Positions 5,325 through 32,583 of a DNA stretch of 32,583 nt are shown one piece after another (the stretch's first letter is position 1; every line of letters begins with the position of its first letter). The translations under genes and the position numbers were made by a program. The DNA is from Chrysochromulina tobinii (lineage: Eukaryota). The notes under the pieces were generated by a model. The model ran no database searches and had not been told where the DNA came from. It saw only the letters and a program-made list of their open reading frames with translations. The stretch is taken from positions 1-32,583 of the forward strand of contig JWZX01003275.1 in the NCBI GenBank assembly GCA_001275005.1, written 5' to 3'.

Positions 5325-5358
5325 TAGCGCCTAGCGCCTGATCCACGGGCCTGTACTG

Positions 5359-8043
5359 ATGACACGGACGCTCTTGTTCATCCTATGCGCGAGCGCCTCC
5401 GCGACCAGTCTCCACCGGCTGCGCGGCGGCGATGCCCCCGCCGTCGCGCCCGTCGCGCCCATCGCCTCCAACGCTATGCCCAACGTCATCACCAGCCGTC
5501 CAGCTGCTGCTTCCGTGCCGCCACCCATCTGCCATCCATCCACCTCTGCCTCTGTGGCCACCGCAATGCGCGAGGCCGTGGAGGCACGCTTCCGCGCGCT
5601 GCTCGACGGGCTAGATCCGCTGATATCGCCATCGGAGCTCGCCGACAAGGTATGCGGTGGCCTGCCCGCTGAGGGCGTGAGTGAGGAGGAGCTCAGCTCG
5701 CTTATGGCTGAGACGGCGGCGTACCAGTCGTCGATGCACCCCGACTTTGGGCGGCTGGCGGCGCGGGTTGCCGTCGTACGGCTGCAAGAATGCACTGAGC
5801 CCGGGCTCGTCGCCACGCTCCGCCGCATGCGCGAGCACACGCACCAGGGCGAGCCCGCGCCGATGGTGACGGCGGAGCTGCTGCAGCGCGCAGAGCGCAT
5901 GGCGCCGCGGCTCGAGGCGGCACTGCGGCACGATGCGGACTTTGCGTACGACTACTTCGGTCTGCGCACGCTGCAGCGCTCGTACCTGCACCGCTCGCGT
6001 GATGGTCAGCCCATCGAGCGGCCGCAGCACCTGCTGATGCGCGTGGCACTCTGCGTGCACGGCGACGACGAGGCGGCTGTGCTCGAGGCATACGATCTCA
6101 TGTCACGCGGGCTGTACACGCACGCGACGCCGACGCTCTTCAACGCGGGCTCACCGCGCCAGCAGCTTTCGTCGTGCTTCCTACTCTCCACGCGCGCCGA
6201 CTCGATCGAGGGCATCTTCGACACGCTCGGCCAGTGCGCCCGCATCTCGCGCGATGCTGGCGGCATCGGCCTCTCTGTCTCCAACGTGCGCGCGGCGCGC
6301 TCGTACATCCGCTCGAGCGGCGGCGTCTCGTCGGGCCTCGTCCCCATGCTCCGCGTCTTCGACGCCACCGCGCGCTACGTCGACCAGGGCGGCGGCAAGC
6401 GCAAGGGCGCCTTCGCTGTGTACCTCGAGCCATGGCATGCGGACGTCTTCGACTTCCTCGAGCTGCGCAAGAACCACGGCAAGGAAGAGGCGCGCGCGCG
6501 CGACCTCTTCTACGCGCTCTGGGTGCCCGACCTCTTCATGAAGCGCGTCGAGGCCAACGGCGAGTGGTCGCTCTTCTGCCCTGACGAGTGCCCCGGCCTC
6601 GTCGACACCCACGGTGCCGCCTTCGAGGCGCTGTACGAGCGCTACGAGCGCGAGGGCAAGGCGCGGCGCACCGTGCCCGCGCAGCAGCTGTGGTTCAAGA
6701 TTCTCGAGGCGCAGATCGAGACGGGCACACCCTACATGCTCTACAAGGACGCAGCCAACGCCAAGTCCAACCAGCAGCACCTAGGCACGATCCGCTGCTC
6801 CAACCTGTGCACGGAGATCATTGAGTACACCGCGCCCGACGAGGTGGCCGTGTGCAACCTCGCCTCGATCGCGCTGCCGCGCTTCGTGCGCGCCGAGGCG
6901 GGCGGCGCGCCGGGCGGCGGCAGCGGCGCGCCGTGGCTCGACGCCGAGGACGATGGGCCCGAGGTGGCCGCGGCGGCCCTCGCGCGGTTCGATTTCGAGG
7001 CACTCCGGCGTGTGGCGCGCTTCGTGACGCGCTCTCTCGATCGCGTCATCTCGGTGACGCACTACCCGCTGCCCGAGGCACGCAACTCCAACCTGCGCCA
7101 CCGGCCCATTGGCGTGGGCGTGCAAGGTCTCGCCGACGTCTTCGCGCAGCTGCGCCTCCCCTTCGAGTCCAAAGGCGCACGCGCGCTCAACCGGGCCATC
7201 TTCGAGACGCTGTACTACGCCGCACTCGAGGAGTCGTGCGAGCTCGCGCGCACGCTCGGCCCACATGAGAGCTACGCGGGCAGCCCCGCCTCGCGCGGCG
7301 TGCTCCAGTACGACATGTGGGGCGTGACGCCCTCGGCGCGCTGGGACTGGGCCGCCCTCAAGGCCAAGATTGCGACGCACGGGCTGCGCAACTCGCTGCT
7401 GCTCGCGCCCATGCCCACCGCGTCGACGGCGCAGATCCTGGGCAACAACGAGTGCTTCGAGCCGTACACGTCCAACCTGTACGCGCGGCGCACGCTCGCG
7501 GGCGAGTTCTTTGTGCTCAACCCGCACCTGCAGCGCGAGCTCTCGGCGCTCGGCTTGTGGAGCCGTGAGACGCGCGACGCCATCATCGGGAGCGGCGGCT
7601 CGGTGGAGCCGCTCGTCCAGCTTCCCGCGCGGCTGCGCGCCGTCTTCCGCACCGCGTGGGAGATGAAGCAGCGCCACCTGATCGACATGGCCGCCGACCG
7701 CGGCGCCTTCATCGACCAGAGCCAGTCGCTCAACCTCTTCATCAAGGAGCCTACCTTCACCCAGCTCTCGTCGATGCACTTCCACTCATGGAAGCGTGGC
7801 CTCAAGACGGGTCTCTACTACCTGCGCACGCAGCCCGCGACCGAGGCCATCAAGGGCCTCGGCGTTGCGCAGCAGCAGAGTGCCGCGAGCATGCCGCCGC
7901 TTCGCGAGGGTCAGGAGGGTCAGCCACCGCCGCCGCCGCAGGACGACCCCAATGGCGCTGGGGACGCGCAGAGCCTCGAGGGCCGCGCCGCGAGCTGCGC
8001 TCTGAACTCTCGGCCTGGTGAGTGTCAAATGTGCAGCGGGTAG
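5359..8043 (+). CDS. RRM1: Class Ia ribonucleoside-diphosphate reductase large subunit (R1), with an N-terminal signal-peptide-like extension
   Basis: Intronless 894-aa ORF. Motifs: HATPTLFNAG, QLSSCFL, YVDQGGGKRKG, SNLCTEI (catalytic N/C/E), VCNLASIAL, APMPTASTAQILG, GLYYLR and C-terminal CQMCSG. Confidence 0.97.
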   Translation: MTRTLLFILCASASATSLHRLRGGDAPAVAPVAPIASNAMPNVITSRPAAASVPPPICHPSTSASVATAMREAVEARFRALLDGLDPLISPSELADKVCGGLPAEGVSEEELSSLMAETAAYQSSMHPDFGRLAARVAVVRLQECTEPGLVATLRRMREHTHQGEPAPMVTAELLQRAERMAPRLEAALRHDADFAYDYFGLRTLQRSYLHRSRDGQPIERPQHLLMRVALCVHGDDEAAVLEAYDLMSRGLYTHATPTLFNAGSPRQQLSSCFLLSTRADSIEGIFDTLGQCARISRDAGGIGLSVSNVRAARSYIRSSGGVSSGLVPMLRVFDATARYVDQGGGKRKGAFAVYLEPWHADVFDFLELRKNHGKEEARARDLFYALWVPDLFMKRVEANGEWSLFCPDECPGLVDTHGAAFEALYERYEREGKARRTVPAQQLWFKILEAQIETGTPYMLYKDAANAKSNQQHLGTIRCSNLCTEIIEYTAPDEVAVCNLASIALPRFVRAEAGGAPGGGSGAPWLDAEDDGPEVAAAALARFDFEALRRVARFVTRSLDRVISVTHYPLPEARNSNLRHRPIGVGVQGLADVFAQLRLPFESKGARALNRAIFETLYYAALEESCELARTLGPHESYAGSPASRGVLQYDMWGVTPSARWDWAALKAKIATHGLRNSLLLAPMPTASTAQILGNNECFEPYTSNLYARRTLAGEFFVLNPHLQRELSALGLWSRETRDAIIGSGGSVEPLVQLPARLRAVFRTAWEMKQRHLIDMAADRGAFIDQSQSLNLFIKEPTFTQLSSMHFHSWKRGLKTGLYYLRTQPATEAIKGLGVAQQQSAASMPPLREGQEGQPPPPPQDDPNGAGDAQSLEGRAASCALNSRPGECQMCSG

Positions 8044-8777: not shown

Positions 8778-9665
8778 CTACGCCTCGTTTGCCTCCTCTG
8801 GGTTCTGAACCTCTGCCGGCGCCTCCCGCGATGCGAGTGCCCCTATGAGGACTGGCAAACGCTGCCTTGCGGCGGCCACACATGCGGCGAGACCGCCGTC
8901 TGGGAGTGGCGCGCCGCCGGGCTTGTGCACGGCTCGCAGCTCGCCCTGGCAGTCGAGCAAGACGGTGACCGCAGTTGAGCTGAGGGCCTCCTCCTCGGCG
9001 CAAGGGTCGAGGATGAGCGTGCCCGCGAGCACGCCGAAGCTGAACGGGAAGAGCGGTTGTACCACGCGCACCGGCAGCGCCGCCTCGGCTTGCACGGTCA
9101 GCGCACCCGTGGCCTCGTCGCTCGCCACGCGCGGCAGCCGCACGCTCGCCAGCGCTGCCATCATAGCCATCATTGCCGCGTCCGTCAGGTTGCCATCGTG
9201 CTCAAGCACGCACAAGTCGCAATAGCAGCTCCAGACGGCCGTGCCTTCAGCTATGCAAAGTGCCTCTAGGTCCACTAGGCCACTATTCGCCGTGCGCTGC
9301 AGCATTTCAACCAGCACAGCCTTTTCTCGGTCCAACCGGCCGATGCTGATGCCGCCACCACCTCCACCGACACCTCCGTGCGCCGCTGCAACGGCGGGTG
9401 AGCAACTGGCCGGAAGCTCGAGGTTGACCACCACGCGACCCCGTGAGGGCTCCGCCTCCGAGGGCGTCGTCGGGTCACATTGTACACCAGCAAGCACTGC
9501 GGTCTGTCCAAGGTGAACGAGCACTGAGCCGTCGGTCGATGAGAGCGAGGCATCGCGCACTGATAGCTTGCGCGCAGCGAGCAGCGCGCGCCCGTCGGGC
9601 CGTACGCCGCGCTGCACGTGCGCGCGGTGGTATTCTAGGGGGTCGAGGACGCGCAGGAGGGCCAT
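8778..9665 (-). CDS. RRP43: Exosome complex RNase PH-like subunit RRP43/EXOSC8
   Basis: ATG at 9665: MALLRVLDPLEYHRAHVQRGVRPDGR...GSVLVHLGQTAVLAGV...DLEALCIAEGTAVWSCYCDLCVLEHDGNLTDA...LDPCAEEE...HKPGG. Confidence 0.88.
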   Translation of the reverse strand: MALLRVLDPLEYHRAHVQRGVRPDGRALLAARKLSVRDASLSSTDGSVLVHLGQTAVLAGVQCDPTTPSEAEPSRGRVVVNLELPASCSPAVAAAHGGVGGGGGGISIGRLDREKAVLVEMLQRTANSGLVDLEALCIAEGTAVWSCYCDLCVLEHDGNLTDAAMMAMMAALASVRLPRVASDEATGALTVQAEAALPVRVVQPLFPFSFGVLAGTLILDPCAEEEALSSTAVTVLLDCQGELRAVHKPGGAPLPDGGLAACVAAARQRLPVLIGALASREAPAEVQNPEEANEA

Positions 9666-9711
9666 GCGTTGGGGAGCGCCACGTCGTCCGTCCGAGGCCT
9701 GTTTGTTTGGT

Positions 9712-9750
9712 GTCAAGCAAGTCAAGTCAAGTCAAGTCAAAGTCAAGTCA
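9712..9750. repeat. (TCAAG)n pentanucleotide microsatellite
   Basis: gtcaagcaagtcaagtcaagtcaagtcaaagtcaagtca, about 50 bp upstream of the RRP43 start. Confidence 0.85.
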
Positions 9751-10119: not shown

Positions 10120-11314
10120 TCAAAACGTGTGGTGGCCGACGGCGAGGGCGGTGGTGAGGATGCCGAAGACGAGGAAGGGCTGCGCCGCGGCCTGGTACTT
10201 AACGTCGTTGGCCACGGGGTCCTGCAAAAAGGAATATTGCGAAAAGATTTGGGGCAGCACGAGGCCGAAGAGGAGGGTCGCGTAGAAGCCTTCGCCAATC
10301 GACCAGAGGTAGGCGGCGACGCCCAGCTGCGTGAGGTCAATCGAGGCGACGCAGATCCACTTGGCCGTGTCGATGCCAAAGGCGACTGGCAGCGAGTTCA
10401 TGCCAAGAGCCCGATCTCCCTCGATGGACTTGAAGTCGTTTACGATGGCGATGCCGAGGCCGGCGATCGAGTAGAGGATGGTGAGCACGATCTCCTGCGG
10501 GCTGATCGAGGCGGCGTCGAACATGGCGTGCCCGCACCACCACGGCAGTGCAATGTACGACGAGCCGAGCGCGTACGTGCCCAGCCAACCCTCGGACTTG
10601 AGCTTGAGCGGCGGCGCCGAGTAGATGTACGCCATGAAGCCGCCAAAGGTGGCGACGGCGGTGATGACGGGCCAGTCGTTGGCCGCCCAGCCATCGAGCC
10701 GGCTGGCGAGCAGCAGGCCGCCCCCGATCAAGAACGCGATCTGCGAGTACACCTCCCACGGCTTGATCTTGCCCGATGGGATTGGCCGATAGGGCTCGTT
10801 GATCGCGTCGAGCTCGCGGTCGTACCAGTCGTTGATGGTCTGCGTGAAGCCGCACATGAACGGGCCAGCGAGCACCATCGCGCAAAGCGCCTTGATGGTG
10901 TCCTCGCCCACGACTGCCCAGCTGTCCGTCGTCGGCGCGTCGCCGAAGAGGTTCCACACCGCATGGTAGTTGCCTGACGCGGCCGCGCCGCACGCGACGC
11001 CCCCAGATGAGCGGCACCCAAGTGGCGGGTTTGGTGAGCTGCAGCCGGATCTTCCAGTTGAGGAACTCTTTGCCAGTAGCCTCCTTGGCACCCTTTAGCC
11101 CGAGCAGCTGCCGGATACCGCCACTGCCGTCCTCGGCTTCTGCGTTCGTCTCGGCTGCAACTGGCTGCTGCTGCATCGCGAGCGGCACGGAGCGCGTCGC
11201 GAGCGCCAGTCGGGGACGTGCGGGCCGCATGGCCGTCGATGCCGGCGCGCGCAACGCGCCCGCACACCCGCAGGACGCAGCCAGCGCGGCGAGCAACCAG
11301 GCGCAGCTCCCCAT
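10120..11314 (-). CDS. chlG: Chlorophyll synthase with bipartite plastid leader; apparent 1-nt frameshift at 11000-11004
   Basis: IRQLLGLKGA...WKIRLQLTKPATWVPLIWG | VACGAAASGNY...TQTINDWYDRELDAINEPYRPIPSG...IVNDFKSIEGDRALG...NDVKYQAAAQPF. Removing one base from the 5-base run joins the two frames. Hydrophobic signal peptide MGSCAWLLAALAASCGCAGA. Confidence 0.95.
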
Positions 11315-11758
11315 CTTCCGACGATCGGGCGAGATGTAAATCTTGCTCGATTACCTGTCACAGACCCAAGAGGGGGGCCGGTAGGACGGCTCGCACTATG
11401 ATTAGGTGCGAACTTGGGCTGCGATCCCTTTCGCTTCGCTCGATCGCGGCGGTACTGTGAATCGCCCTCCTCTCGCCGTTGCACGGTATGCAATGCGTCA
11501 GACTGCGTTGGTCGCGCTTCGCTGCGCGACGAGCCTGTCGTGGCTGGCCTGGATCGAAAGCTGCGCCGCCCTCGCTGCCCCGCTCCTGTCTGAGGTCACG
11601 CCACGCTCCGCGCGGCCGCAGCAGCAGTTGCTATCCTGGCGCTTGAAGCTCCTTTCCCTCTCGCAAGCGCTTCATGTATCGCTGCTGCTCACCTTGGTCG
11701 CGCCCGCCTTTCACAGGCACGTGTTCTTTGTGAGCTCGCAGCAGCAGCAGCAGTAGCC

Positions 11759-12197
11759 ATGGCTGAGGTCGAGGAGACGCTCAAGCGCATCAACTCGCAC
11801 AAGGGTGTGCAGGGCATCGTCATCATGAACTCAGACGCGGTGCCGATCCGCTCCACATTTGACTCTGCAACTGCAACGAAGATCTCTGCTTCGATCAAAC
11901 CGTTGGCTGAGAAGGCGCGCAGCGTGGTGCGCGACCTCGATCCGCAGAACGACCTCACCTTCTTGCGCATCCGGAGCAAGAAGAACGAGACACTGGTGCG
12001 CCGTTGCCACGGCCAGAGCTGCTGCCTCGAACAAGAGACCGAGAATGTTGGCGAACATGGCCTCTCTGTGCACCACATAACCTCCTGCCGCGTCGCGCGC
12101 TCGATCACCTTATCCTCACACGCGCGTGCATCGTCTTCAGGTGGCGCCCGACAAAGACTTTATCCTCGTTGTGGTCCAGAACCCGAATGTTGAGTGA
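11759..12197 (+). CDS. DYNLRB: Dynein light chain roadblock/LC7, 2 exons (11759..11995, 12141..12197), 97 aa
   Basis: [19 protein letters not shown]...[23 protein letters not shown], then intron GTGCGC...TTCAG (11996..12140), then [18 protein letters not shown]. Confidence 0.95.
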
Positions 12198-17853: not shown

Positions 17854-20800
17854 CTATCCGTGGGCCAGAATGTGCACGGCGTTGTTGAGCTGGGTGGTGC
17901 GCGTATGGAGCGCGACGGTGATCCGGTTGGCAAAGTGGGCGGAGGCGCTCTCCTCCGAGTGGCCGATGAGCATGCACTCGCGCAGCCAGTTGATATCCTC
18001 GGCCCTCTGAAGCTCGGGAATGCCTGTCGAGAGCATGAGCTGGAAGAGGTTGATGAACTCGTTCGCGTGCGCACGGATGACGTTGTACGCCCGGCCGCAC
18101 AGGTCACTGAAGCGCGCGTAGTCGTCCGCGCCCTTCTCTCCAAGCACATACGCAAAGTCGGGCGTGAACACGAAGGGGGCGCGCTCACGCCTGATGCCAA
18201 ACTTGGACTTGAAGTTGCCCAAAAAGTGGCCAAAGTCGATGTGGAAGAGGTGGCCTGTGCGTGCGAGCATGATGTTGTCATTATGCCTGTCGCCGATGCC
18301 CATGACATACGTGGCAACGCAGTAGGCCGCGAGCGAGACTAGGAAGGTGTCGACCGCCCGGCGGTACGCGTCGGGCGTCGGGTTGTGTTCGCGCAGGTAC
18401 ATAGCCATCGGTTCCTTGGAGAAGGCGCCGCTGGCGCCACCCGAGTAAGTCTTGGTGATGTCTGCTGTAGTCGTCGAGTTGAGTACCACCTCGATGAAGC
18501 CGAGCTCGTTGCCCGTGGCGACGCACCGATAGGCCGAGAGCTGCAGATCGAGCCCCGCGCGCTCCCAGCGACGCTCCATGATGCGCAGGATCTGGAGCGT
18601 GAGCTGGTCCTGGCGCAGGTCGTCGCCGCACTTGAAGATGACGTACAGGTCGGCACCGATTGGGTCGGCGTTCGAAAAGACGAGCCAGAGCGGAACCTTC
18701 TTTGAGTCCATCGTCTTGCACTTCTCGATGCGAAGCCCGGAGCACTCGAAGCGCGGCGAGAGCGGCAGCGTGAATTTGAGTGGGAACGCGACCTTGGCGA
18801 GCTCGGCTTGGAGCACCCGCTTGCGCTCAGGCTTGCGGATGGTCTTAACGAGCTCGGCCGAGGCGACGAGCATGGACTCAACGCGGCACTGCAGCTCGAG
18901 CTCCGACCGGTGCTCTCCACAGCAGCGCAGGTACTCCTGCAGCAGCAGCCCGAAGCGCTCGCACACCTCGGGCGCGTGCATCCCTGCCTTGAGGCACCAA
19001 AAGAACTGGTGGCCAACTTGGTGCGGCGACGAGAGTGCGCGGCGCAGCAGGAAGCGTGCGAGTGCCGAGTCGTGCCGCGCCTCATACTTGAGCACCTGCA
19101 TGCAATGAGGGACAAAATCAGCATGCAATCAGCGAGAGGGAGCGCCTCATACTTGAGCACCTGCACGAGCTGCAGCACGTACAACTCGAGGTCGGTGTCC
19201 GAAAAGTCCTCGAGGCATCCCACGGCATACTCGCGGATGCGTGCGTCCGCAAACTTAGCATCGAGCAGCTCGAGTGCAGCCACCGGCTTGAGCGGCGCCC
19301 AACGGCCAAGCAGCGCATGCATCTCGGCGACCTGGCGGTGATCTGCCCATGAGACGCTCTGCAGGAACTTGGGTAGCGCGATGGGCGACGAGAGGATGAA
19401 GTGCCGGTGCGTCCAGAGGATCTGCTTGTCATCTTGCGTGAGGTCGGCGAGAGGATCCTGCTCGATGAGTACCTTGAGCCGCTTGATCACACCGGGCGAT
19501 GGCATGCGCTGCGCGTCCGCGCCGCCGCCGCCGCCGGCCTCGGCGACCGCGAGCGGGCGAGGTAGGACGAGGGGCGCTACGAAGTTCTCGAATTGGACAA
19601 AGAGCACCGGCGTCTCAGACCCGTACGTGGACACGTTCTCGGTCGCCGCTCCGGATCAGGTTTGCCTCGGCGCCTGGCCAGAGGCGCAGCTGGTACACTC
19701 CGGAGGCGAGCCGATTCTCGTGGTCGTACAGGGGCAGCCCCACCCATCCGAGCGGCACGGGCGTGAGCTCCCTACGAGCTCCGATGTGATCTCGCGTGGG
19801 CTCCCTACGAGCGCTGGCGGGCCGGCCGTACACGGTGAAGCAAGCCCGCCCCGCCTGGGGAGCGTGGCACACGGGTAGGTCGAAGGCGAGCCATTCATTC
19901 CACTGCGGGTTGAAGCCTTCATCGGCGCTGAGCAGGCTTGTCTGGCGCGGGGCGCACAGCGGCACGCCGCCATGGTACAGTGCCGCGCCGACGTGCAGCG
20001 ACCACGTGGATAGGGCGGCAGCCGCCCGGCCCTTGACGAACCAGGTGAGGAGCTGGGCGGCGGCGCGCATGTTCTCAAGCGCCACGATGCGAATGCGCAG
20101 CTTCGTATGCGGCGAGAGCGCCAACACAGAAGGGAAAGCCGACGGATTGAAGGGGACATTGAGTGGCGGTAGCGGCACGTGTTGCGAGGCGGGCGGCGGC
20201 GGCGCTGGCGGCAGGGGCGGTGCAGAGAGCCACGGGTGTGGGAGGAGGCGCAGCTGTATCTCCTGGGAACGCTTGAGGCAGTAGCGCACCGTCGAGTAGT
20301 CGATCAACTCTCCGCCGACGAGATACTCATTCACGCCCAGGAACTTGAGCACCATCTGCTCGGGTCTGAGCGACTCATCCTTGAGGGCGCGCACATAGTG
20401 GCCGTGCGCGAGGGCTCGCAGCTCGGAGACCTTTTGGCTCTTGGTGGCCATGTAGCCCTTGGCAATGTCCTGGCCGAGGAGGAAGATCTTGACCAGGAAG
20501 CGCGAGGGGAGCGTGGCAAGCGGTGGCGTCGGGTCGGTGAACGTGGGCAGCTCGCGGTTCACCTTGGCTGCCTCGTACTCAGCGAGCACCGTCGGGCGCA
20601 GCAGCATCATCGTTCGCCGGAAGTGCAGCACCTCCATCGACTCGGAGGACCAAACGAGAGGATGGCCGAGCAATGCATGCACGACCTCCTCCGCCTCGGC
20701 CAGCGGAGGAACGAGGGCGTCGCGGTACTCGGCGGCGTCCGTGGCACGGCACAGCCGCAGGATGGGCACACGCCGGTGCTCTAGGAAGGATCGCACATAC

Positions 20801-23771
20801 TGGGCCGTCTGCAGCATCGCCTTGCCCCCGGACGAAAGAACTTCCCCCGTTGTGGGCACCTGCAACACCCAGCCACTCTCGCTAGGCGAGCCCTCGGAGG
20901 CGCCCGGACCGGCGCCATGGCCGAGACCGCCGGTGCGCGCCGCATGGCCGAGGACGGCGAGAACAGCGCGGCCGATGCTGTGCTCGTGCGTGAACGTGTG
21001 CAGGCGCGAGGCGCCTTCAGGCAGCAGCACCCGGCACAAGAACGTGGGCGGCAGCGGCTCGCCGCTATTGGCCACCTCGGCCGCAAGTGCGCCGCCCATT
21101 GTCTTGGAATGGCGCGGCCTCCGGTAGAGATGCTCAGCTTGGGTCTCATCGATCAAGCAGCGCGCCTTTGAGGGCCAATCTCGCGCCTCCTGCTCGGCGA
21201 TCACCGGAGCGAGCTTACGCGACGGGAGCACGAAATCTCGCGAGGTCTCACCCACGAGCTCGGAGGTGAGCTCGCCCGTCAGCTGGCCCTTCTTGATGTG
21301 AACGTACATCAGGCGAGCGAGCAGAACAATCAGCTTTCGAGCGCCTGCATCCTCGGCGAGGCTGAGCGACGAGAGCTCGGCATACGAGATAACGCCCACA
21401 TACGCGGGCGTCGCGCCGAGCACGTCCGCCTCGCGCCCCCCTCCCTGGAAGAGGGGACCGTAGCCGAGCGCCGTGCCCGGGCGCAGCGTGCGCGTCACGG
21501 GCGCCTGGGTGCCGTCATGGGCACGGGCACTGACAGGACGATGGTGCACCTCAAGAGAGCCTTCGAGCAGGAGGGCCACGAAGCTCGCCTCTTCCCCCGC
21601 CTTGAGGAGCGGCGAGCCCACGCCGAGGCGCACGACCGCGAGGGCGCGGGAGAGCAGCGCGAGCTCCGAGAGGCTGAGCTCGCCGCGCATCCAGTCCGCC
21701 TTGCGCTCCGCCAGGCGCAGCAGGCGCAGCGCCTGGGCGGTGGGCGTGGGCGAGGGCAGGAGATTGCGAAGGAGATTGCGAAGCATGGGCACCGTGCTGC
21801 CACCGCCTGCCGCCGCCGCAAGCTCGGCTTCTCGCTCGTCCCTGTTTAGGGCATCTCCCTCGCTGTGGAACGAGCTTGCACTCCCACCAAGGGGCTGGGA
21901 GGGGCTCCGACCCCCTCGTCGCTCGTCTTTCGGGAAGGAGCTTTCACTCACACGCCCAGCGGCACAGTCGGCGCCTCCGAGTTCCAGGTGCGCGTGGGTC
22001 ACGGCCGTGGTACGCATCCGCACTATGAATGTTTCGAGGGGCAGGCAGGCCGCACGCTGCGAGGCGCCAGATGAGTGGAATCGCTGCACGAGCAACGACG
22101 CCGAGAGCGGCTGCTCGTCACTCCCACTGTGAACATTCCCAGGCGGCTCGTCACTCCCAGGGCGGTCGGCCCCGGAGGGAATGGACATGTCATCGGCGGG
22201 CGCGGCGGCGGCAGCAGCGTCGGCGTAGGCGGCGGCCATCGCACCGAGGAGCGTGTGGGCGAGGGCTGGTGTCTTGGATGCGATGCGGGGCAAGTCGGCC
22301 AACGAGAGCATGCCCACTATCCCGTCCTCAAGAGCGACGATGTCACTCAGTCGCGCTGGTGCCGTTGAGAAGAGAGCAGCCTCGCCTACGAACTCCGCCG
22401 CACCGCGCACCACTAGCTCCCCGCTGTCAGCTTGGCCGAACTCAGCACACGAGCCCGAGAGTATAAGCCCCACCCACATTGCCGCCTCACCCTGTGCAAA
22501 GAGCACCTCGCCTGCGAGGAAGGGCGCCGCGGCAGCGCCGTCGTGAGCGCCTGGGTGAGCTCCGGGCTGAGGGTACTGAGCCAGCCGCCGCCGCCGGCCA
22601 TGCCGCCGCCGGCTATTCCACCCGCCATGCCACCCGCCATGCCGCCCGCCATGCCGTCGCCCTCGGAGGTCTGAAGACCGATCTGAAGACCGATGAGATA
22701 CTCAAGCACCTTCTCCGACGTGAGCGAGGTAGGCAAGGACGAGTACGTGCGCACAAGCGCGTCGACCCCTCTGCGCGCCGAGGTGATGGGCACGAGGGGT
22801 GGTGATGTCGTGGACAAGCTGACAATCGCATTGGTCGACGACATCGGGAAGGCGCTCACGTCGGGAGCTTTGATTGAGCGCGGTGCTCGCGTCGCGTCGG
22901 GCTCGTTGGACGATTTGGACAGCTTGACCTGCTCACAGAGGCGGGAGGGCGGCGAGCGCAAGGATGGGCTCACTTGATGGATCAAGCAGGCACTAGGCAG
23001 GAATGGACCTGGCAGCGCCTCACCTTGGGGGTGCCTGAGGTGCGGCGCGAGGGGTCGTCGAGGTCCTTGCGCCGGGTGGACGCTTTCGATGCCTTGCGCA
23101 GCAGTGACTCCTGCTTCTTGAGGTCCAAAGGTGTATTGGCGTCCCACCCTTGCTGCGCCTGCTTGGCAAGCAACTCACGCACGCCATGCTGTCGCTGCTG
23201 CTCACTTACGCGCGAGAAGTCGATGCCATCGGACTCAAACTGCTTCTCGAGCGCGGCATTTGCGAGCTGCGTGTTCAGCTTCGTCGCGAGCGTTGGATTG
23301 GACTTCTTGAGCCGCTCGAGCTGTGTGAACGGCACGACTGCGAGATACCCGTCCTCGGATGCCACAACCGACACGTTCCGCGTACCGCCCGAGAATAGGC
23401 TCGTCCCACCGATGATGTCGCCAATGCCACGCAACGCGCCCACTGGCACATCACCGATCATCGGCGTGAGGACGCCCTTTAGCAGCACGCCGAAAAAGGT
23501 GGCCGGCTCGCCTTGAAGAAGGACCGTCTCGCCCTCCTTGAAGTAGAGAATGGTGAGCTCGTGCACGAGGTCGAGCAGTTGTTGGAAGTCGAAGTCCCCA
23601 AAGTACTTGCTGCACTCCTGCGTCTTTGCGAGCAGCTCGATGGCCTGCAGGCGGCAAAGGATGGGATGTGTGACATTGGCCATCATCGAGGGACGAGGGA
23701 GCAGCACTGAAGCCCACCTGCTCTTCGGACACGTCGCTCATCTCGGCTGAGAGCTGCTGCACGAGCGGCAT
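17854..23771 (-). CDS. Class I-type phosphoinositide 3-kinase catalytic subunit with three N-terminal cyclic-nucleotide-binding domains (about 1,900 aa; 4 exons; two apparent 1-nt frameshifts)
   Basis: Exons 23718..23771, 23024..23644, 19161..22928 and 17854..19095, all with in-phase GT-AG junctions. Indels at about 22531 and about 19653. Kinase: MDSKKVPLWL, IFKCGDDLRQDQLTLQ, GIGDRHNDNIM, HIDFGHFLGN. Helical: ALELLDAKFADARIREYAV. C2: ALYHGGVPLC, WNEWLAFDL. RBD-like: LKFLGVNEYL. CNB motifs: QGEPATFFGVLLKG, QGEAAMWVGLILSG, AGEEASFVALLLEG. Confidence 0.88.
19096..19160 (-). other. 65-nt spliceosomal intron bounded by a 24-bp direct repeat
   Basis: CAG|GTGCTC...TGCAG|GTGCTC. Removal restores the conserved LQLVQVLKYEARHDSAL of the PI3K helical domain. 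Confidence 0.9.
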
Positions 23772-24043
23772 TGAAGTCGTGTGAACGACAAGGGCCGTCC
23801 AATCGATGACAAGGGGCAAGACGAGGCAAGTCAAGAGTCAAGACAGTCTTTACAAGTCAAATCGTCGCGGTCGAGTAAACCTCTCCTCACAACTGCTTGC
23901 GGCTTTGACGAGCTCAAAATGATAACGGAGAGTTTTGAAGAGAGGCGTGAAACGTGTTCACAGGACTTTTCGCGCGACTCCTGACGGCTTCGTGCCCGGC
24001 GGAGCATCGGGAGGTGGTGGTTCATAAGGTGGCCTGAATTACT

Positions 24044-24880
<837 letters not shown>

Positions 24881-25694
24881 GCCGCGAGGGATCCTAAAGA
24901 ACTGTAGCTCGACCCCACCTGCTGGGCAGCCAGCGGCAGGTAATTTCCGGCGGCCGAGCGCCGGCGTGCTCGACTACACGAGCTCCCGGGTCACTATGCC
25001 GCCAGGTGGACGATCCGTCTTCCAACTCGGAGATGGGAGTACGCAGCCGCCGCCAAGAGCGCCAACCTATGGGAGTGGTCTGTCCGGAGGAGGGCAGCAG
25101 CAGCAGCAGCACGCGGCGGGAGGGTATGCGGCGGGCTGGGCGCCACCCGAGCGCATGGGGTTGCAGGGTGGTGTGCGTAACCCCAACGCCTCCTCGGTCG
25201 TCTTTGGCTGACGAAACTCGACCATGTTGGTGTTCGCATGCATGCATGTTGATGCGGCGGTACGGCTCGGCTTCAGCGCCGCGTAGGCGGTAGCCGGTAC
25301 CCCCCCGCGCGCGCCTCGCCTAGGCAATCGGAGTCGCACGCATGAAAGGCCCTCAAAGGCGGCAGCGCGGCACACGCCGCCCGCGCCGGACGGGGACGCC
25401 GCCCTACGCCTCGTGATCGGCGATCCGGCGCAAGGTGTCGGCCGCATCGCCCGACCCCGAGCCGATACGCCCGGCCGGGTCGGCGCGCCCCGCGACCCCG
25501 CTAAGCCCGCATTAGACCCCGCGCGCCGCACGATTGGCGCGCCGCCACGCTCCGTGGTGACCGTTTTATGTCTGTACGCGCGCGCACAAAATGTGCTGTG
25601 TGTAATTGGCATACATGGTGCGTGCGTGGTGGGTGCTCCGGTTGACAGCGCGACATCTAATTTATTCATGCTGATGGCCCTGATGCTCTCACCT

Positions 25695-25839: not shown

Positions 25840-26225
25840 TCATTGAAAGTACGACAGCGATAGCGTCGCGAGGACCGACGCAAGGAGAACAAAGAAAAGG
25901 TTCGATCTGCTCTCACGACACATGCAGCAGCGGCAGCAGAGTGTGAGCGGTGGCGTACGCGACTGTGAGTGTGCGCATTCGCTGGCCACGGGCCATAGGC
26001 GGGCAGAGGGCGCGGAAGCACTCACAGCTGGGTGTTCTCGACGCCCGTCGTGTACGAGTCGCCATCCTTGCGGCCCTTGTAGCCAATTGAGCCCTCTGGG
26101 AGCGCCTTGATCTCGCTGGCTTTGCGGGAGTCCTTGGGGAAAGCAAAGTCGGTCACCGTCTTCTTGTTGGTCGACTGAAGACCCTCGTCGATCTTGCGGC
26201 TGCCCACGAGACCCACGGTCGGCAT
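25840..26225 (-). CDS. Small (88 aa) putative tail-anchored membrane protein, 2 exons (26026..26225, 25840..25906)
   Basis: MPTVGLVGSRKIDEG...GVENTQ, intron GTGAGT...GAGCAG (25907..26025), then LSNLFFVLLASVLATLSLSYFQ*. Exon lengths 200+67 give 89 codons. Confidence 0.65.
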
Positions 26226-26384
26226 GGGACCGAAACTTGGATGCGACACGTGTCATCAATCATTCACAATTCACCAACACGCCGTATAACGTATCATTCA
26301 CAACCACATTCAAATTCGTGTGTGTCTCACACCTTCACATTTTCACACCTTCGCATTTGGCCTTCACATTCTTCGTCGTCATTT

Positions 26385-27188
26385 ATGCGAGCCGCACTCG
26401 CAAGAATTCTGCCCATCCTTGCGACGCCACGCTGCCCGCGCACCTTGCAGAGGGTGCTCGTCACTGAAGCAAACGAAGCGATAGCGGACGAGCCGTCGTC
26501 GCACTTACGCGCAGCGCCGACTCGTAGCACCTCACGGGCTGCGCTGCGAGCGGCTGCGCCACGCATTTACTCGGAGCTCAACCACTTGGCCTTCGATGGC
26601 CAGCTGCCGCCTGATATTTCGCTATCATGGAATGCGAGGCTGCGGCGGACGGCCGGTCGCTGCCACTTCATCTCGCTGGCGAATAAAACGAGGGTGGCTT
26701 CCATCGAGCTATCTCCGCGGGTGCTAGACTCCTTGGACCGGCTGCGCACTACCCTCGCCCATGAGATGTGCCATGCCGCGCAGTGGCTGATCACGGGCAC
26801 CGCACGGCCGCCGCACGGCTCGGCGTTTCAGTTGTGGGCACGCCAACTCGAGATGCGCGTGCCCGACATCCAGATCACCACGCGCCACACTTACGAGGTG
26901 TCCTGCCGCTACCGCTATTCGTGCGTCGAGTGCGGACAGCACTATGGCCGTCACTCGCGCTCCCTCGACCTGCGCACGCGGGTGTGCCGATGCGGTGGCA
27001 CGCTCCACTTTGACGGCGCCTTGGGTCACGACGGTGCCCCGATCAAGCCGGCCAAGCCACCGCCTGCGTTCGCCAAGTATGTGCAAGAGGCTTACGCGCC
27101 CTTGCGGAGGCGGTGGCCGAGGGTGACGCACCAGCGCATCATGCAGGAGCTGGGAAAGAAGTGGCGCGCGAAGAGTATAAATTATTAA
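26385..27188 (+). CDS. SprT-like metalloprotease with zinc ribbon and HMG-box-like tail (GCNA/ACRC family)
   Basis: ELNHLAFDGQLP, WNARLRRTAGRC, IELSPRVLD, TLAHEMCHAAQW (HExxH), HGSAF, CVEC...HSRS...CRC, and FAKYVQEAY...HQRIMQELGKKW. Confidence 0.9.
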   Translation: MRAALARILPILATPRCPRTLQRVLVTEANEAIADEPSSHLRAAPTRSTSRAALRAAAPRIYSELNHLAFDGQLPPDISLSWNARLRRTAGRCHFISLANKTRVASIELSPRVLDSLDRLRTTLAHEMCHAAQWLITGTARPPHGSAFQLWARQLEMRVPDIQITTRHTYEVSCRYRYSCVECGQHYGRHSRSLDLRTRVCRCGGTLHFDGALGHDGAPIKPAKPPPAFAKYVQEAYAPLRRRWPRVTHQRIMQELGKKWRAKSINY

Positions 27189-27249
27189 CTTAGCGCCGTA
27201 TCGGGCCTTTTTGCCTCACGTCGCGAGTGTTGCTCCGCGTGCGTCGGCG

Positions 27250-28293
27250 ATGTCGCTCTTGATCACGGGCGGGCTGGGATTCCTCGGGCTGCAGACAGCA
27301 TCGGCGCTGCTGCGCCGCGGCGTTGTGTGGAGCCCACTCTTCAAGCAGCCGGTCTCCATCAAGAAGATCACGCTTTTTGACATACCGGCGGCCATCAGTG
27401 CGGGCGCAGCGTCTGTGCCCAAGGAGCTGCGCGAGGACCCGCGCGTGGCCATCAAGACGGGCGACCTGGGTGAGGAGGGCATCGCTGCCGAGCTCATCGA
27501 CGACGACGACCTCTCCATCGTCCACCTCGCTTCGATGGTGTCCGGCGACACGGAGGCCGACCCGGACCGTGGCTGGAGAGTGAACGTGGAAGGGCAGCGC
27601 GCTCTGCTCGAGGCGGTGAAGGCGAGCGCACCCGGCGCGCGCTTCCTCTTCACCTCCTCGACAGCCACACTCGGCCCGGTGCCCGAGGGACGCATCGCGG
27701 ACGACAGCACCAAGCTGCTGCCCGGCAACACCTACGGATTCCACAAGGCAGTGTGCGAGCTGATGATCAATGATTACGCGCGGCGCGGCTGGGTAGACGC
27801 GCGTGGGCTGCGGCTGCCTGTGATCGTGGTGCGCCCGGGCGCGCCCAACGCCGCTCTCACGGGAGCCTGGTCTACAGTGGTGCGCGATCCTCTCAAGGGT
27901 CTGGACGTGACCATACCGATACCACTCGATGCGAGGCTACCTGTCGCATCCTATCAGACGGTGGTGGGGAGCGTGGCAGCCATGCTCAACGAGGTGGACG
28001 GGCGCGCTCTCGGCGCCGACCGCACCCTCATGCTCCCCTCCCTGTCCCTCTCGGTCGCGGAGATGCATGCAGCCGCACAATCATTTGCCGCGCGCCACGG
28101 GCTGCCCATCGGCACAGTGACCTCACGTGAACAGGAGGTGGCCACACGCATCGTGCGCGGAATGGGGAGCCGCGCCGACGGCGCGCGCGCCGTGAGTGCC
28201 GGTCTGCCGCGCGATGAGAGTGCCGACTCGATAGTGGCCGCGTACGCAGCCGACTATGTGCTGCCGAAGCTCCAAACGAGCAGCACCAGCTGA
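27250..28293 (+). CDS. Extended SDR / NAD-dependent epimerase-dehydrogenase, D-erythronate dehydrogenase (DenD)-like
   Basis: LLITGGLGFLG, HLASMVSGDTEAD, YGFHK (YxxxK) and ELMINDYARRGWVDARGLRLPVIVVRPGAPNAA. Confidence 0.85.
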   Translation: MSLLITGGLGFLGLQTASALLRRGVVWSPLFKQPVSIKKITLFDIPAAISAGAASVPKELREDPRVAIKTGDLGEEGIAAELIDDDDLSIVHLASMVSGDTEADPDRGWRVNVEGQRALLEAVKASAPGARFLFTSSTATLGPVPEGRIADDSTKLLPGNTYGFHKAVCELMINDYARRGWVDARGLRLPVIVVRPGAPNAALTGAWSTVVRDPLKGLDVTIPIPLDARLPVASYQTVVGSVAAMLNEVDGRALGADRTLMLPSLSLSVAEMHAAAQSFAARHGLPIGTVTSREQEVATRIVRGMGSRADGARAVSAGLPRDESADSIVAAYAADYVLPKLQTSSTS

Positions 28294-28623: not shown

Positions 28624-31600
28624 CTACAGTCTACAGTCTACGCTGTGCGAGCTCTCGCTTCGGCCGACGGAGGCGGGCGGGGGGTCTTTCGATGGGGTCC
28701 AAGGGTTCGTGTGGCTTGCGAGGGAGCCGACGACCTCATGCACCACAAACGCGGCCACGTCGGGGTTGCTCCAGTAGCCGTTATGAGCTTTGAGAGCCGC
28801 GAGGTACTCGGAGGCATGCTCAAGCTCACTCTCTTGCAGCTGGTAGTCCACCCGCCCGCCGCCGTTGAGCGACCAGACGACCGAACTGGCGGCGGGGGCG
28901 GGAGCGGGGACGGGGGCAGGAGCAGCAGCGGCATCGGCGGGGGCGCCGGCGGCGGTGGCGTGGGTACCGGTGGAGGCCGCGGAGTTCGCGCAAGCGCCGC
29001 CGCCGCCGCCGCCAAACCAGCCGGACAATGCCGACGGCACGTAGCCGGAGACCGCGGAAGGGACGTACTCGAAGACGTTGTGGTAGAATCGGCTCTTCAC
29101 CTCCCAAGCGTCGTGCAGGTACGCGCTGGTCGCTTGGCGGAGCTTGATGTGCAGTCGCTTCCCATGCCGGTCGCCCGCATAGGGGACGTATACTGGGGGC
29201 GGGGGCTCGAGCGGGGGTGAGCGGTCTCTAGGCGTGACGCCGCTGCCAGTGCGGCCAGCCCCCGTGTCGGCCGCGCCACCTCCCATGCTGCTGCTGCTGC
29301 CGCCTGCCGCCTCCGCCTCCGCCTCGTCCTCCTCCTCCTCGTCGTCCTCGAGAAGCAACGGCTCCAGACGGTAGGCGATAGGGTCGTTACGCGCGAAGAC
29401 GTTGAACACGGCCGTCGGGCGGCGGCCGAGCCGGCGCGGGAGGAGAAAGGAGCGACCCAGCTTCTGCCCGCGCACCGATAGGAAGCAGCCAATTGGGCTC
29501 CCGAGCGTGAGCAGCGCTGCAAAGGCGCATTCGAGCGGAGGGCAGCCGAGCGGCGGCGGCGTACTCAGCAGAGGAGCGTACGATGGAAGCTGCTTGGACG
29601 GCGGCGCGGGGGGCGGAGGCAGCGGCGCGGGCGGCGGAGGCGTCGGCGTGGTGGGTGCTGCGCTGGGCGACGCCAGCACGGTGCGCGCGGCGGACGGGGT
29701 CAGCGGAGGGGACGTTGTAGTAGTAGCAGCAGCAGTAGCAGTAGCAGCAGCAGCAGCAGTAGTAGTAGCTTCGGCGGACGGGGTCAGCGGAGGTACAGCC
29801 AACTCCGAAGCTGTCCATAGCGATGCGCCCCATGAGGCCATCTCCGCTGTGAAAGTCATGGAGCCCACCTCCGCGGCTTCAGAGCCGCCGACCATTCGGA
29901 GATCGTCGAGATCGAGCTCGACCATCAGCCGGCTCAACTCGGCGCCCACGAGATTCTGTATCTCGACGAGCTCGGCCATCTCGGCGTATACGAGCCGCTC
30001 CTCGTCCCTTTCCAAATTAGGGCACAGTCGCTCGCACCCCTCGTCACTTGCCATATTTAGACCGAGTCGGGGCAAAAAGTCCTCGCGCGTCGGCATCGTC
30101 GAGAGGCCCGCTCGGAAGGCGTTCTTGAGCCAAAAGTTGTGGAAGTGCTCGAGGTGCGTCTGGTACGCATCGCGCGCGAGGGTGCTCAAGAGGCTAGCGC
30201 GGTCCTCGACCATCCCCGCGAAGACGGCGTTCTGAAAGGCGAGCGAGCGTCGGAGCCACACGAGGGCGATGGCGGCCGAGGGGTCGGCGAGGACGCCCCC
30301 CGCTCGATGGATGCCACTCGCGCGTTCCGCCTCGAGGAGCTCGCGCAGCGAGATCAGTCGTTGCGAGCCATCTGCCGCCTCGAGATCGCGCCACGCCCGT
30401 TGCATCTTCTCAAGGTTCGCCTCGTCATTCTTCACGACGAGCAGCAGCAGTGGTCCGAAAGCCTCGAAGATCTTGAGCGTGTGGGAGAAAGCCTCTAGCA
30501 GCGCCTCGACACGAACCGTCGCGCCGCCCAATTTGGAATGTCCCAATTTGGAATGTCCCGATTTGGAAGGTGCTGCCCCATGGCCGCTACCATCAATGTC
30601 TTCGTCCGGCGCGTGCGCGTCGTCATGGGCGCCTGGGAGCGCCGCGTACCAGGCGCTCGTCTGGGCGCGCAGCAGCGAGTGGCTGCTCCCATCGGCGGCC
30701 GCGAACAAGGTGCGTCTCCTTCGAGCCATGGCGGCACCGGCATATGTAACGGTGCCGGTGCCGGTGCCAGTGTCGGTGCCAGTGTCAGTGCAGGTGCCAA
30801 TGCAGGTGCCAGTTCCGGTGCTGGTGAGGGGCATGTTGCTCTGAGGCTTGGTGTCACTGGCGGGGTCGACTGTGCTAGTGTCATCAATAGCACTTGCCAT
30901 ATTAGGGTCCCTCAGAGCCGACGATACCGCAGAGGCCGCCATCACCTGTGCGAGCTCGTCACCTTGATCCCGGATGAGCTCGTCACCTCGATCTCGGATG
31001 AGCTCGTCCACCGTAGGCATAGCGGGAGGAGGCGTAGCGGGAGGAGGCGTAGCGGGAGGAGGCGTAGCGGGAGGAGGCGTAGACTCCCACGCTGCGGGCC
31101 GCGCTGCCGCGGGCAGTGAGCGCCCCGGTGTGAGCGTCCGCCCGACCGAGTTCACAGCTGGATGCGGCGCGTTCACAGCTGGATGCGGCGCCGCGCATGT
31201 GCCGTCGACGATGCCGAGGGAGCACAGGACATCGAAAGAGATCAGACTCCCGAGGGAGTGCCCGATGAGGATGTAACGGCCGCCCGATTCGTCAAAGCCG
31301 GGGTTGTACCGCCGCCATGCATGCACGAGCTCGTTGATGCCGCGCACGACCGCGAGCTGTATGGCCGCACGTGTCGAGGGCTGCTCGTAGAGCAAGACAT
31401 CGCATAGGACCTCATTGGTGACCAGACGGAGCGTTGGGATCGAGGGGAGTGTCACTGAGGCCATTCGCCGCCTCCATGCGTCGCCGCCCTTGCTGTGGTG
31501 CCAACCGACTCCGAGAAACTCGACACGGCTGAGCGGCGCACCGCCGCCGCCGCCGCTGCCGCCGCCGCTGCCGCCGCCGCCGCTGATACCCCCAGTGCAT

Positions 31601-32429
31601 TCCTTCGACGCCAACCCGGCAGCCTCGTCGGCGAGAGTCTGCGCGAATGCGGCCGACTTGGCTGCGTTCGCACGCAGCTTATCGACCGAGGAGTTGAACT
31701 CGTTGAAGTTGAATGGATTCGTCGTCGACCAGAGGGACTCGCCGACGCCATGGACGACAAAGGCGAGGGTGGCGGGGCGAGTCTGCTCGTAACGGATCTC
31801 ATCCTCACTCGGTGCTGGCCGACTCTCACCTGCCCAGCCGCGTCCGATGGAGCACGAGGAGGCGCCCCAGAGCGATGCGCCCCATGTGACCACCTCGGCT
31901 GTGGAAGTCATCATCGCGCTCACCGCCGCACGCACGCCGCTGCCGCTCGCACTGCTCGCGCCGCTCAGGGAGATGGTGATGGTGCTGCTCAGGGAGCTGG
32001 TGATGGAACTTGTCATCCCACCGGAGGCCGCCGTGCCGGGCGCGACGCTGATGTTCACCCTGTACGCACCGCCCAAGACGGTGATCGCGCCCGTCGCGCC
32101 CGGCACGGCGCTCATGGCGGAGGGCGATGGCGGCGACGCGTCAGCCGCAGCGGGAGGAGCTCTGCTCTCCAGTGCCCTGATCAAGGCGTCAATGTCATCG
32201 AGCAGGCAACGCAACTCGCGATGCTGTTTGCTGTGCTGACGATCTGCGTCGGTGGCGACGCGAGCATGCAAGTGTCTGAACTGCTCCTCCCAATCGCTGA
32301 GCTTTCCCTCCACCTGCCGCCGCTGCGTGCTGAGCTGCTGCACGCTGGTGCTGTTGGTGATGGCGGTGCTGCTGGTGCTGCTGATGCTGCCGCCGCCGCC
32401 GCCGGCGCTGCTGCCGCCGCCGCCGGCGC

Positions 32430-32461
<32 letters not shown>

Positions 32462-32583
32462 TCGCCTCCTCCTCCGCCGCCGCCGACGACGACGCCGGTG
32501 GTGATGGAGATGGCGGAGGAGGAGGAGACAGCAGAGGAGACGGCGGAGAAGGCGGAGGAAACGGCGGCGGGGGAGGGGGGGGG
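28624..32583 (-). CDS. DDHD-domain (PA-PLA1 type) phospholipase with an internal GLTP domain; 5' end beyond the window
   Basis: The frame is open from the window end to the stop at 28624. Lipase motifs: FVVHGVGE, VEFLGVGWH, TLPSIPTLR...DVLLY, IGHSLGS. DDHD: LGSPIGCFL, FNVFARNDPIAYRLEPLL, RVDYQLQE, HNGYW. GLTP: VVKNDEANLEK, ALVWLRRSLAF, AYQTHLEHFHNFWLK. Confidence 0.88.

Follow-up and report, generated by a model that had tools for sequence, protein, structure and literature searches.

In PKG and EPAC, tandem cyclic-nucleotide-binding (CNB) domains lie N-terminal to the catalytic domain, and binding of the ligand to them relieves autoinhibition. To our knowledge, animals connect cyclic-nucleotide with PIP3 signalling only by indirect routes, via PKA, EPAC or G proteins. 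Among PI3Ks, 'class I/II ancestor' enzymes are reported, one copy each, for Haptophyta, SAR and Excavata, and the non-unikont enzymes, including those of haptophytes, are placed before the split of classes I and II (Philippon et al. 2015, PMC4617754, in its accessible part). The same part of that work traces the class IA adaptors back to the common ancestor of metazoans, choanoflagellates and ichthyosporeans; with so late an origin, p85 would not be expected for a haptophyte enzyme. Haptophytes do offer a precedent for joining a signalling input to a phosphoinositide kinase, the GPCR-PIPK fusions reported in the accessible text of PMC5784254, which, unlike the protein described here, combine a seven-helix receptor with a PI4P 5-kinase and share no related domains with it. 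In the literature searched we found no description of a PI3K with built-in CNB domains, in agreement with the first-pass annotation of this DNA, which knew of no such p110; automatic database annotation may list the architecture. A term search of 12 supplementary files of PMC4617754 returned only four domains for these enzymes and no cyclic nucleotide, and the accessible main text of PMC4580454 does not contain 'PI3K', 'phosphatidylinositol' or 'cyclic'.

We analysed a stretch of 32,583 nucleotides from the alga Chrysochromulina tobinii (contig JWZX01003275.1; hereafter the window) that encodes a PI3K of this kind, CNB-PI3K (Table 1). Three CNB domains (CNB1-CNB2-CNB3) are followed in order by a ubiquitin-fold domain and by the Ras-binding (RBD), C2, helical and kinase domains. 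Tandem CNBs thus stand N-terminal to a catalytic domain, as they do in PKG and EPAC; departures from these proteins and from PKA-R are a lipid kinase as effector and the Gly-Tyr of CNB3, and the gating mechanism is proposed by analogy. From the ubiquitin fold to the kinase the order is that of mammalian p110 gamma, beta, delta and alpha, whereas the about 850 extra N-terminal residues with the three CNBs have no counterpart in mammalian p110. The RBD-C2-helical-kinase core is also shared with the 'class I/II ancestor' PI3Ks (PMC4617754, accessible part). Judged by its sequence, the enzyme is a class I-like PI3K with CNB domains that is probably regulated by cyclic nucleotides.

Table 1. Coordinates of CNB-PI3K, its introns and domains, its neighbours in the window, and CNB-bearing PI3K loci of other protists (the latter numbered within each locus)
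Feature	Coordinates	Strand	Remarks
Whole CNB-PI3K gene	17854..23771	minus	4 exons: 23771-23718, 23644-23024, 22928-19161, 19095-17854; 1,894 aa
Intron 1	23645..23717	minus	73 nt, GT..AG; spliced out in RNA runs X13, X14, X15, retained in DNA run X9
Intron 2	22929..23023	minus	95 nt, GT..AG; spliced out in X13, X14, X15, retained in DNA run X9
Intron 3	19096..19160	minus	65 nt, GT..AG, within 24-nt direct repeat; spliced out in X13, X14
CNB1	23236..23641	minus	PF00027; Gly-Glu, Arg ten residues past Gly
CNB2	22221..22598	minus	Gly-Glu and Arg present; one-residue insertion in cassette
CNB3	21282..21768	minus	Pfam 28.8 bits by itself; Gly-Tyr replaces Gly-Glu, Arg present
Ubiquitin-fold (beta-grasp) domain, at p110 adaptor-binding-domain position	20727..21048	minus	Model and Foldseek; no Pfam match in window
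Ras-binding domain	20232..20514	minus	PF00794, 25.5 bits, cut-off 22
PI3K C2 domain	19586..20112	minus	PF00792
Helical (PIK) domain, split by intron 3	18906..19502	minus	PF00613
Lipid kinase domain	17859..18786	minus	PF00454; KCGDDLRQD, DRHNDN, DFG, basic activation loop; without C-terminal PX-C2 extension
Ribonucleotide reductase large chain	5335-8040	plus	
RNase PH	8781-9731	minus	
UbiA prenyltransferase	10123-11094	minus	
Roadblock/LC7	11594-12190	plus	
DEAD-box helicase with long trinucleotide runs	24038-24904	plus	
SprT-like protein	26091-27185	plus	
Epimerase	27181-28290	plus	
Long ORF	28627-32583	minus	Glycolipid transfer protein and DDHD domains; continues past window end
L058	384-6371	plus	Single ORF: three N-terminal SH3, CNBs (three canonical with Arg-Thr), kinase core
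L076	2954-7627	plus	Single ORF: three N-terminal SH3, CNB domains, kinase core
L034	43-4092	plus	Single ORF: two WW, CNB, GAF, core; no RBD match
L059	5499-9517		CNB and GAF before C2, in pieces; no RBD match
L079	511-4760		CNB and GAF before C2, in pieces; no RBD match
L071	327-4997		CNB and GAF before C2, in pieces; no RBD match

The domain order had been proposed by the first-pass annotation together with the profile search that could verify it. All the profiles named there match, with PI3K_rbd, PI3K_C2, PI3Ka and PI3_PI4_kinase above their Pfam cut-offs, and the order is repeated in orthologs. Against the curated cNMP_binding cut-off of 27.5 bits, CNB1 scores 35.1 bits in the window and 39.9 in the metagenome locus L002, and the ORF carrying CNB2 and CNB3 scores 62.4 bits over two stretches, CNB2 being the better one. 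C2, helical and kinase domains follow one another as in PI3K catalytic subunits, and the kinase, which had been called intact, indeed retains the catalytic Lys, DRH and DFG. Its basic activation loop is that of p110beta but for one residue within GNFKSKFGI.RER, which suggests PI(4,5)P2 as the substrate. The best solved relatives of the core by sequence are p110 gamma, beta, delta and alpha (E 1e-107 to 1e-99 among the best 60 of 96 matches). An AlphaFold2 model of residues 566-1765 of the orthologous locus L007 (pLDDT 81.8, pTM 0.78) likewise matches p110 structures and superposes on p110gamma from the pre-RBD helices onward (Z 36, rmsd 2.7). The region described as RBD-like earned that name by a PF00794 match above cut-off in the window; in L007 the profile scores 19.8, under the cut-off, and the model has a beta-grasp there.

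Assignment to class I held up in part. The architecture and the activation loop agree with it. Class II features are absent, with a stop codon directly after the kinase and no C-terminal PX or C2 match in Pfam, and the presence of an RBD departs from the class III (Vps34) pattern of C2, helical and kinase domains only. What speaks against the unqualified label is that the accessible part of PMC4617754 puts non-unikont enzymes ahead of the separation of classes I and II; our kinase trees contain no labelled class II or III entries. Similarly, the region annotated as resembling the p110 adaptor-binding domain (ABD) does have a ubiquitin fold at the ABD position, modelled as a beta-grasp with pLDDT 82.5, and the linker helices 3′ of it superpose on p110gamma in the model. 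It is at most a candidate adaptor-binding domain, as the fold also matches isolated p110 RBDs: Foldseek returned p110 chains together with the isolated p110alpha RBD (E 3e-5 to 2e-4, TM about 0.6). The sequence of this domain matched no solved structure at E 10, and neither the Pfam p85-binding nor the p110gamma ABD matched CNB-PI3K. Going by the model, a second GTPase-binding domain at this position is no less likely.

The fusion is conserved among relatives. L007 consists of one intronless ORF of 1,875 aa with three cNMP_binding stretches and a complete PI3K core, and three such stretches, ordered as in the window gene, are also found in the proteins P0004 and P0005. When longer proteins were searched with the kinase, PF00027 was present in three of the best 120 of 3,267 matches, namely P0003, P0004 and P0005, whose kinases are 73-74% identical to the query. 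Of the named proteins among these 120, a PI3K fragment of Calcidiscus leptoporus came closest, at 70%. The Calcidiscus enzyme, the window gene and its CNB-PI3K relatives, including L007 and L004 from the 80 of 547 loci kept from a metagenome scan, form one kinase clade (support 1.0; SH-aLRT 100). Through Calcidiscus, its one named member, this clade points to a haptophyte as the probable source of the gene. CNB sequence is present in all six clade members that extend 5′ of the ubiquitin-fold domain, namely the window gene, L007, P0003, P0004, P0005 and L004, the last of which starts within CNB3 and changes frame between CNB3 and the remainder; P0002, P0006, P0007, L005, L006, L008-L011 and L025 do not begin until the RBD region or later, and lie outside this count. 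HMMER against 1.84 billion representatives gave 267 matches; of the 150 listed, 140 are additional to the other searches. Many of those listed are fragments of the CNB-PI3K family that contain one domain or one junction, none with a kinase, and were assigned to the family by profile score, family-specific linkers or tree. A query extending from CNB2 to C2 had no matches in 7,979 candidates among longer proteins, and is insensitive since relatives of such length exist. Four proteins of 1,000-2,000 residues (P0153, P0168, P0173 and P0262) carry three to five Pfam CNB stretches, close to those of the CNB-PI3K family, and no other Pfam domain.

Conservation along the protein is uneven. Between the window gene and L007, CNB1 is 67% identical (91/136), about as conserved as the helical domain (68%), with 49% for CNB2, 48% for CNB3, 75% for the kinase and 27-36% for the two inter-CNB linkers. 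The cassette Arg, seen in all three CNBs by the first-pass annotation, is found in 6/6, 9/9 and 12/12 sequences for CNB1, CNB2 and CNB3, respectively; these and the following counts leave out P0161 and P0225, which belong to a group outside the family, while P0238 stops short of the CNB2 Arg and P0141 of the CNB3 cassette. The annotation's further claim, that only CNB2 keeps the canonical Gly-Glu, proved to be mistaken. At base 23406 the window is at odds with all four sequencing runs examined and with loci L001-L003; its CNB1 cassette IGGTSLF is IGE(T/M)SLFSGGTR in reads and loci, the Gly-Glu having been masked by a wrong base. By sequence, the most canonical pocket is that of CNB1, not CNB2.

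In CNB1, Gly-Glu, a small +3 residue and Arg at +10 are present in every one of the six sequences, in register with Plasmodium PKG. Plasmodium PKG and the CNBs of PKA-RI alpha are its nearest solved relatives, and a search of the ESM Atlas with this domain gave generic CNB clusters only. The cassette Glu of CNB domains contacts ribose, and the Arg is followed by Ala or Thr/Ser in PKA and PKG. Here the residue right after the Arg is Asn in five sequences and Thr in one, so that this position does not single out cAMP or cGMP. According to the accessible part of PMC10959531, the PKA-RI positions A202 and R209 decide between cyclic-nucleotide and nucleoside binding, the Arg neutralising the cyclic phosphate and a Glu at +3 excluding it. 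The small +3 residue and the Arg of CNB1 match these two positions; the acidic +3 residue typical of nucleoside binders is found in none of the three CNBs, and a +3 Glu in no family member. Judging by these residues, CNB1 is probably a genuine site for cyclic nucleotides and the best candidate for a sensor. CNB2 appears to be a possible site, looser than CNB1: the window gene has Gly-Glu, a small +3 residue and Arg, while in the family Glu is found in eight of ten sequences and two have a one-residue insertion. CNB3 seems to be a conserved yet altered domain, with Tyr for Glu in 12/12 and with its Arg followed by Glu in 10/12; in the L007 model it has the secondary structure of a CNB.

These features lead us to propose, at what we consider an even chance, that the three N-terminal CNBs are a built-in regulatory subunit. 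Cyclic AMP or cGMP would bind CNB1, possibly also CNB2; binding would relieve autoinhibition of the kinase; and the released kinase would make PIP3, PI(4,5)P2 being the predicted substrate. CNB3, the neighbour of the kinase core, no longer has the Glu that binds ribose, and for this reason may be a structural coupler and not the main sensor. The RBD may add a second input through a Ras-family GTPase. Against the proposal, long, poorly conserved linkers part CNB1 and CNB2 from the core, so the two may work from afar or serve for docking. A complex prediction for CNB3 and the RBD-to-kinase part of L007, made without alignments and without folded controls, reached 0.23 against a mark of 0.34 and is silent on contact. 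Our proposal draws on the conserved pocket of CNB1 and on the behaviour of PKG and EPAC. It draws as well on the late origin of p85/p101 (PMC4617754, accessible part). If it is true, a lipid kinase that reads a nucleotide would be a new class of cyclic-nucleotide effector, and would answer how class I-like PI3Ks are controlled in lineages without p85/p101.

The CNBs might instead be ligand-free scaffolds, or bind a nucleoside, another nucleotide or a partner protein, with Ras and membranes controlling the kinase. Such a role would suit the invariant Gly-Tyr of CNB3, the variability of CNB2, the odd Asn after the CNB1 Arg and the related CNBs of long multi-CNB proteins without other Pfam domains; CNB folds able to bind other ligands, nucleoside-binding CNBs among them, are known (PMC10959531, accessible part). 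It fits poorly with CNB1, where Glu, Arg, canonical spacing and the small +3 residue are kept in 6/6 at a conservation equal to that of the helical domain, and with the absence of an acidic +3 residue from all three CNBs, and we consider it unlikely, if far from negligible. Another reading, improbable in our view, accepts the binding of a cyclic nucleotide but makes its effect on the kinase inhibition, or a change of location or partners, in place of activation. The sequence does not fix the direction of the effect, and long variable linkers would suit a tethered targeting module; the relief of inhibition upon binding in PKG and EPAC would argue, by analogy, for activation. As to what a built-in cyclic-nucleotide regulator may serve, our guess is a role in feeding or motility, because haptophytes, which are major phytoplankton, often eat prey (PMC4580454, accessible part).

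CNB-PI3K is one expressed, spliced gene, and the fusion is real. Five overlapping ORFs in 23771-17854 carry, in order, one cNMP_binding match, two more, PI3K_rbd, PI3K_C2, PI3Ka and PI3_PI4_kinase. As annotated, they are joined through three introns and two indels: RNA splicing, reads and L001-L003 give an open frame of 1,894 codons, with zero internal stops once the introns are removed and the indels corrected, and an in-frame stop lies 23 codons 5′ of the ATG. The stretch was present in 18 of 21 public runs (6 RNA and 12 DNA), from which three RNA runs and one DNA run were examined. Introns 1 and 2 are absent from all three RNA runs and intron 3 from two of them, while all introns are present in the DNA run. 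A single RNA contig, spliced and 2,078 nt long, links CNB1, CNB2 and the beginning of CNB3, and the points 22530 and 21100, at which the first-pass annotation had envisaged separate transcripts, are both bridged by RNA contigs, the latter in two runs. The whole gene is spanned by no single RNA contig, and 21380-21536, within CNB3, is uncovered among the contigs listed. As the cause of this hole we rejected an in-frame 45-nt intron in CNB3: an RNA contig enters it unspliced, and L007 has an insertion there.

Over about 6 kb, the window differs from the reads in four bases and two indels (23406, 22533, 21116, 19913, 19658 and 19653, the indels being 22533 and 19653). It is one base short at 22533/22534, in CNB2, where RNA run X13 and DNA run X9 read the open form, and has one surplus base at 19653, in the C2 domain, where X13, X14 and X9 do; the correction from reads that had been recommended thus yields a continuous frame. 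L001 and L002 carry exactly the six read-supported differences and, like L003, a strain 98-99% identical, have both indels in the open form. Because X9, L001 and L002 may share the source of the window, L003 and the RNA runs carry more weight as independent evidence. In L002, 1,256 codons run without a stop from upstream of CNB2 into the helical domain. We conclude that both frameshifts are errors of the window assembly. With the gene broken there and truncated in most database entries, it may have been missed for this reason. L002 and L003 differ by 17 synonymous and 17 non-synonymous base changes, too sparse for a domain-wise selection test. Further frameshifts in the same window may also be assembly errors.

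That two separate genes, one for CNBs and one for a PI3K, were merely joined through assembly errors, as the two frameshifts, the RNA hole, the want of a gene-spanning contig and the frame change of L004 past CNB3 might suggest, is largely refuted and has a minimal probability in view of the stop-free codons of L002, the spliced RNA contig from CNB1 to the start of CNB3, the intronless single ORF of L007 and the identical domain order of P0004 and P0005.

Intron 3 has peculiarities of its own. It shares its first 19 bases with the next exon, as part of a 24-nt direct repeat that crosses the junctions. In the DNA run the core of the intron is covered at very great depth and has loose ends; together these observations suggest a repeated intron element. 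The metagenome loci L010 and L025 apparently break at about the site of this intron.

Fusions of CNBs to PI3Ks are found beyond the haptophyte family. A scan with CNB profiles covered all 80 loci, many of them too short to show a CNB, and 123 proteins; among the 77 loci from other species it revealed eight in which a CNB precedes the kinase (L007, L004, L058, L076, L034, L059, L079 and L071). Like the window gene, those of SH3-CNB and WW-CNB-GAF type have CNBs fused to a class I/II-like kinase, and their architectures differ (Table 1); GAF domains can also bind cyclic nucleotides. The three types are separate, well-supported kinase clades, with L058 and L076 outside that of the window gene, and their CNBs also group apart (97/78) in an alignment of 116 columns with outgroups chosen for likeness to the window family. 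The AU test did not reject one clade of the haptophyte group with the CNB-GAF group (p 0.59) or with the SH3-CNB group (p 0.078). A repeated origin of CNB-PI3K fusions is plausible. We tentatively suggest, at a little below even chance, that single-chain PI3Ks in which cAMP or cGMP switches PIP3 output evolved at least three times in protists (CNBx3, SH3-CNB and WW-CNB-GAF), in place of the p85/p101 adaptors of animals. A CNB match in L023 was discarded, as it lies in a gene of its own on the opposite strand, one that encodes membrane segments. L053 (5660-11266, plus strand) encodes a PI3K with PH domains and an RBD, another accessory-domain variant. The neighbours of CNB-PI3K look ordinary among the 28 of 39 window ORFs that were scanned (Table 1).
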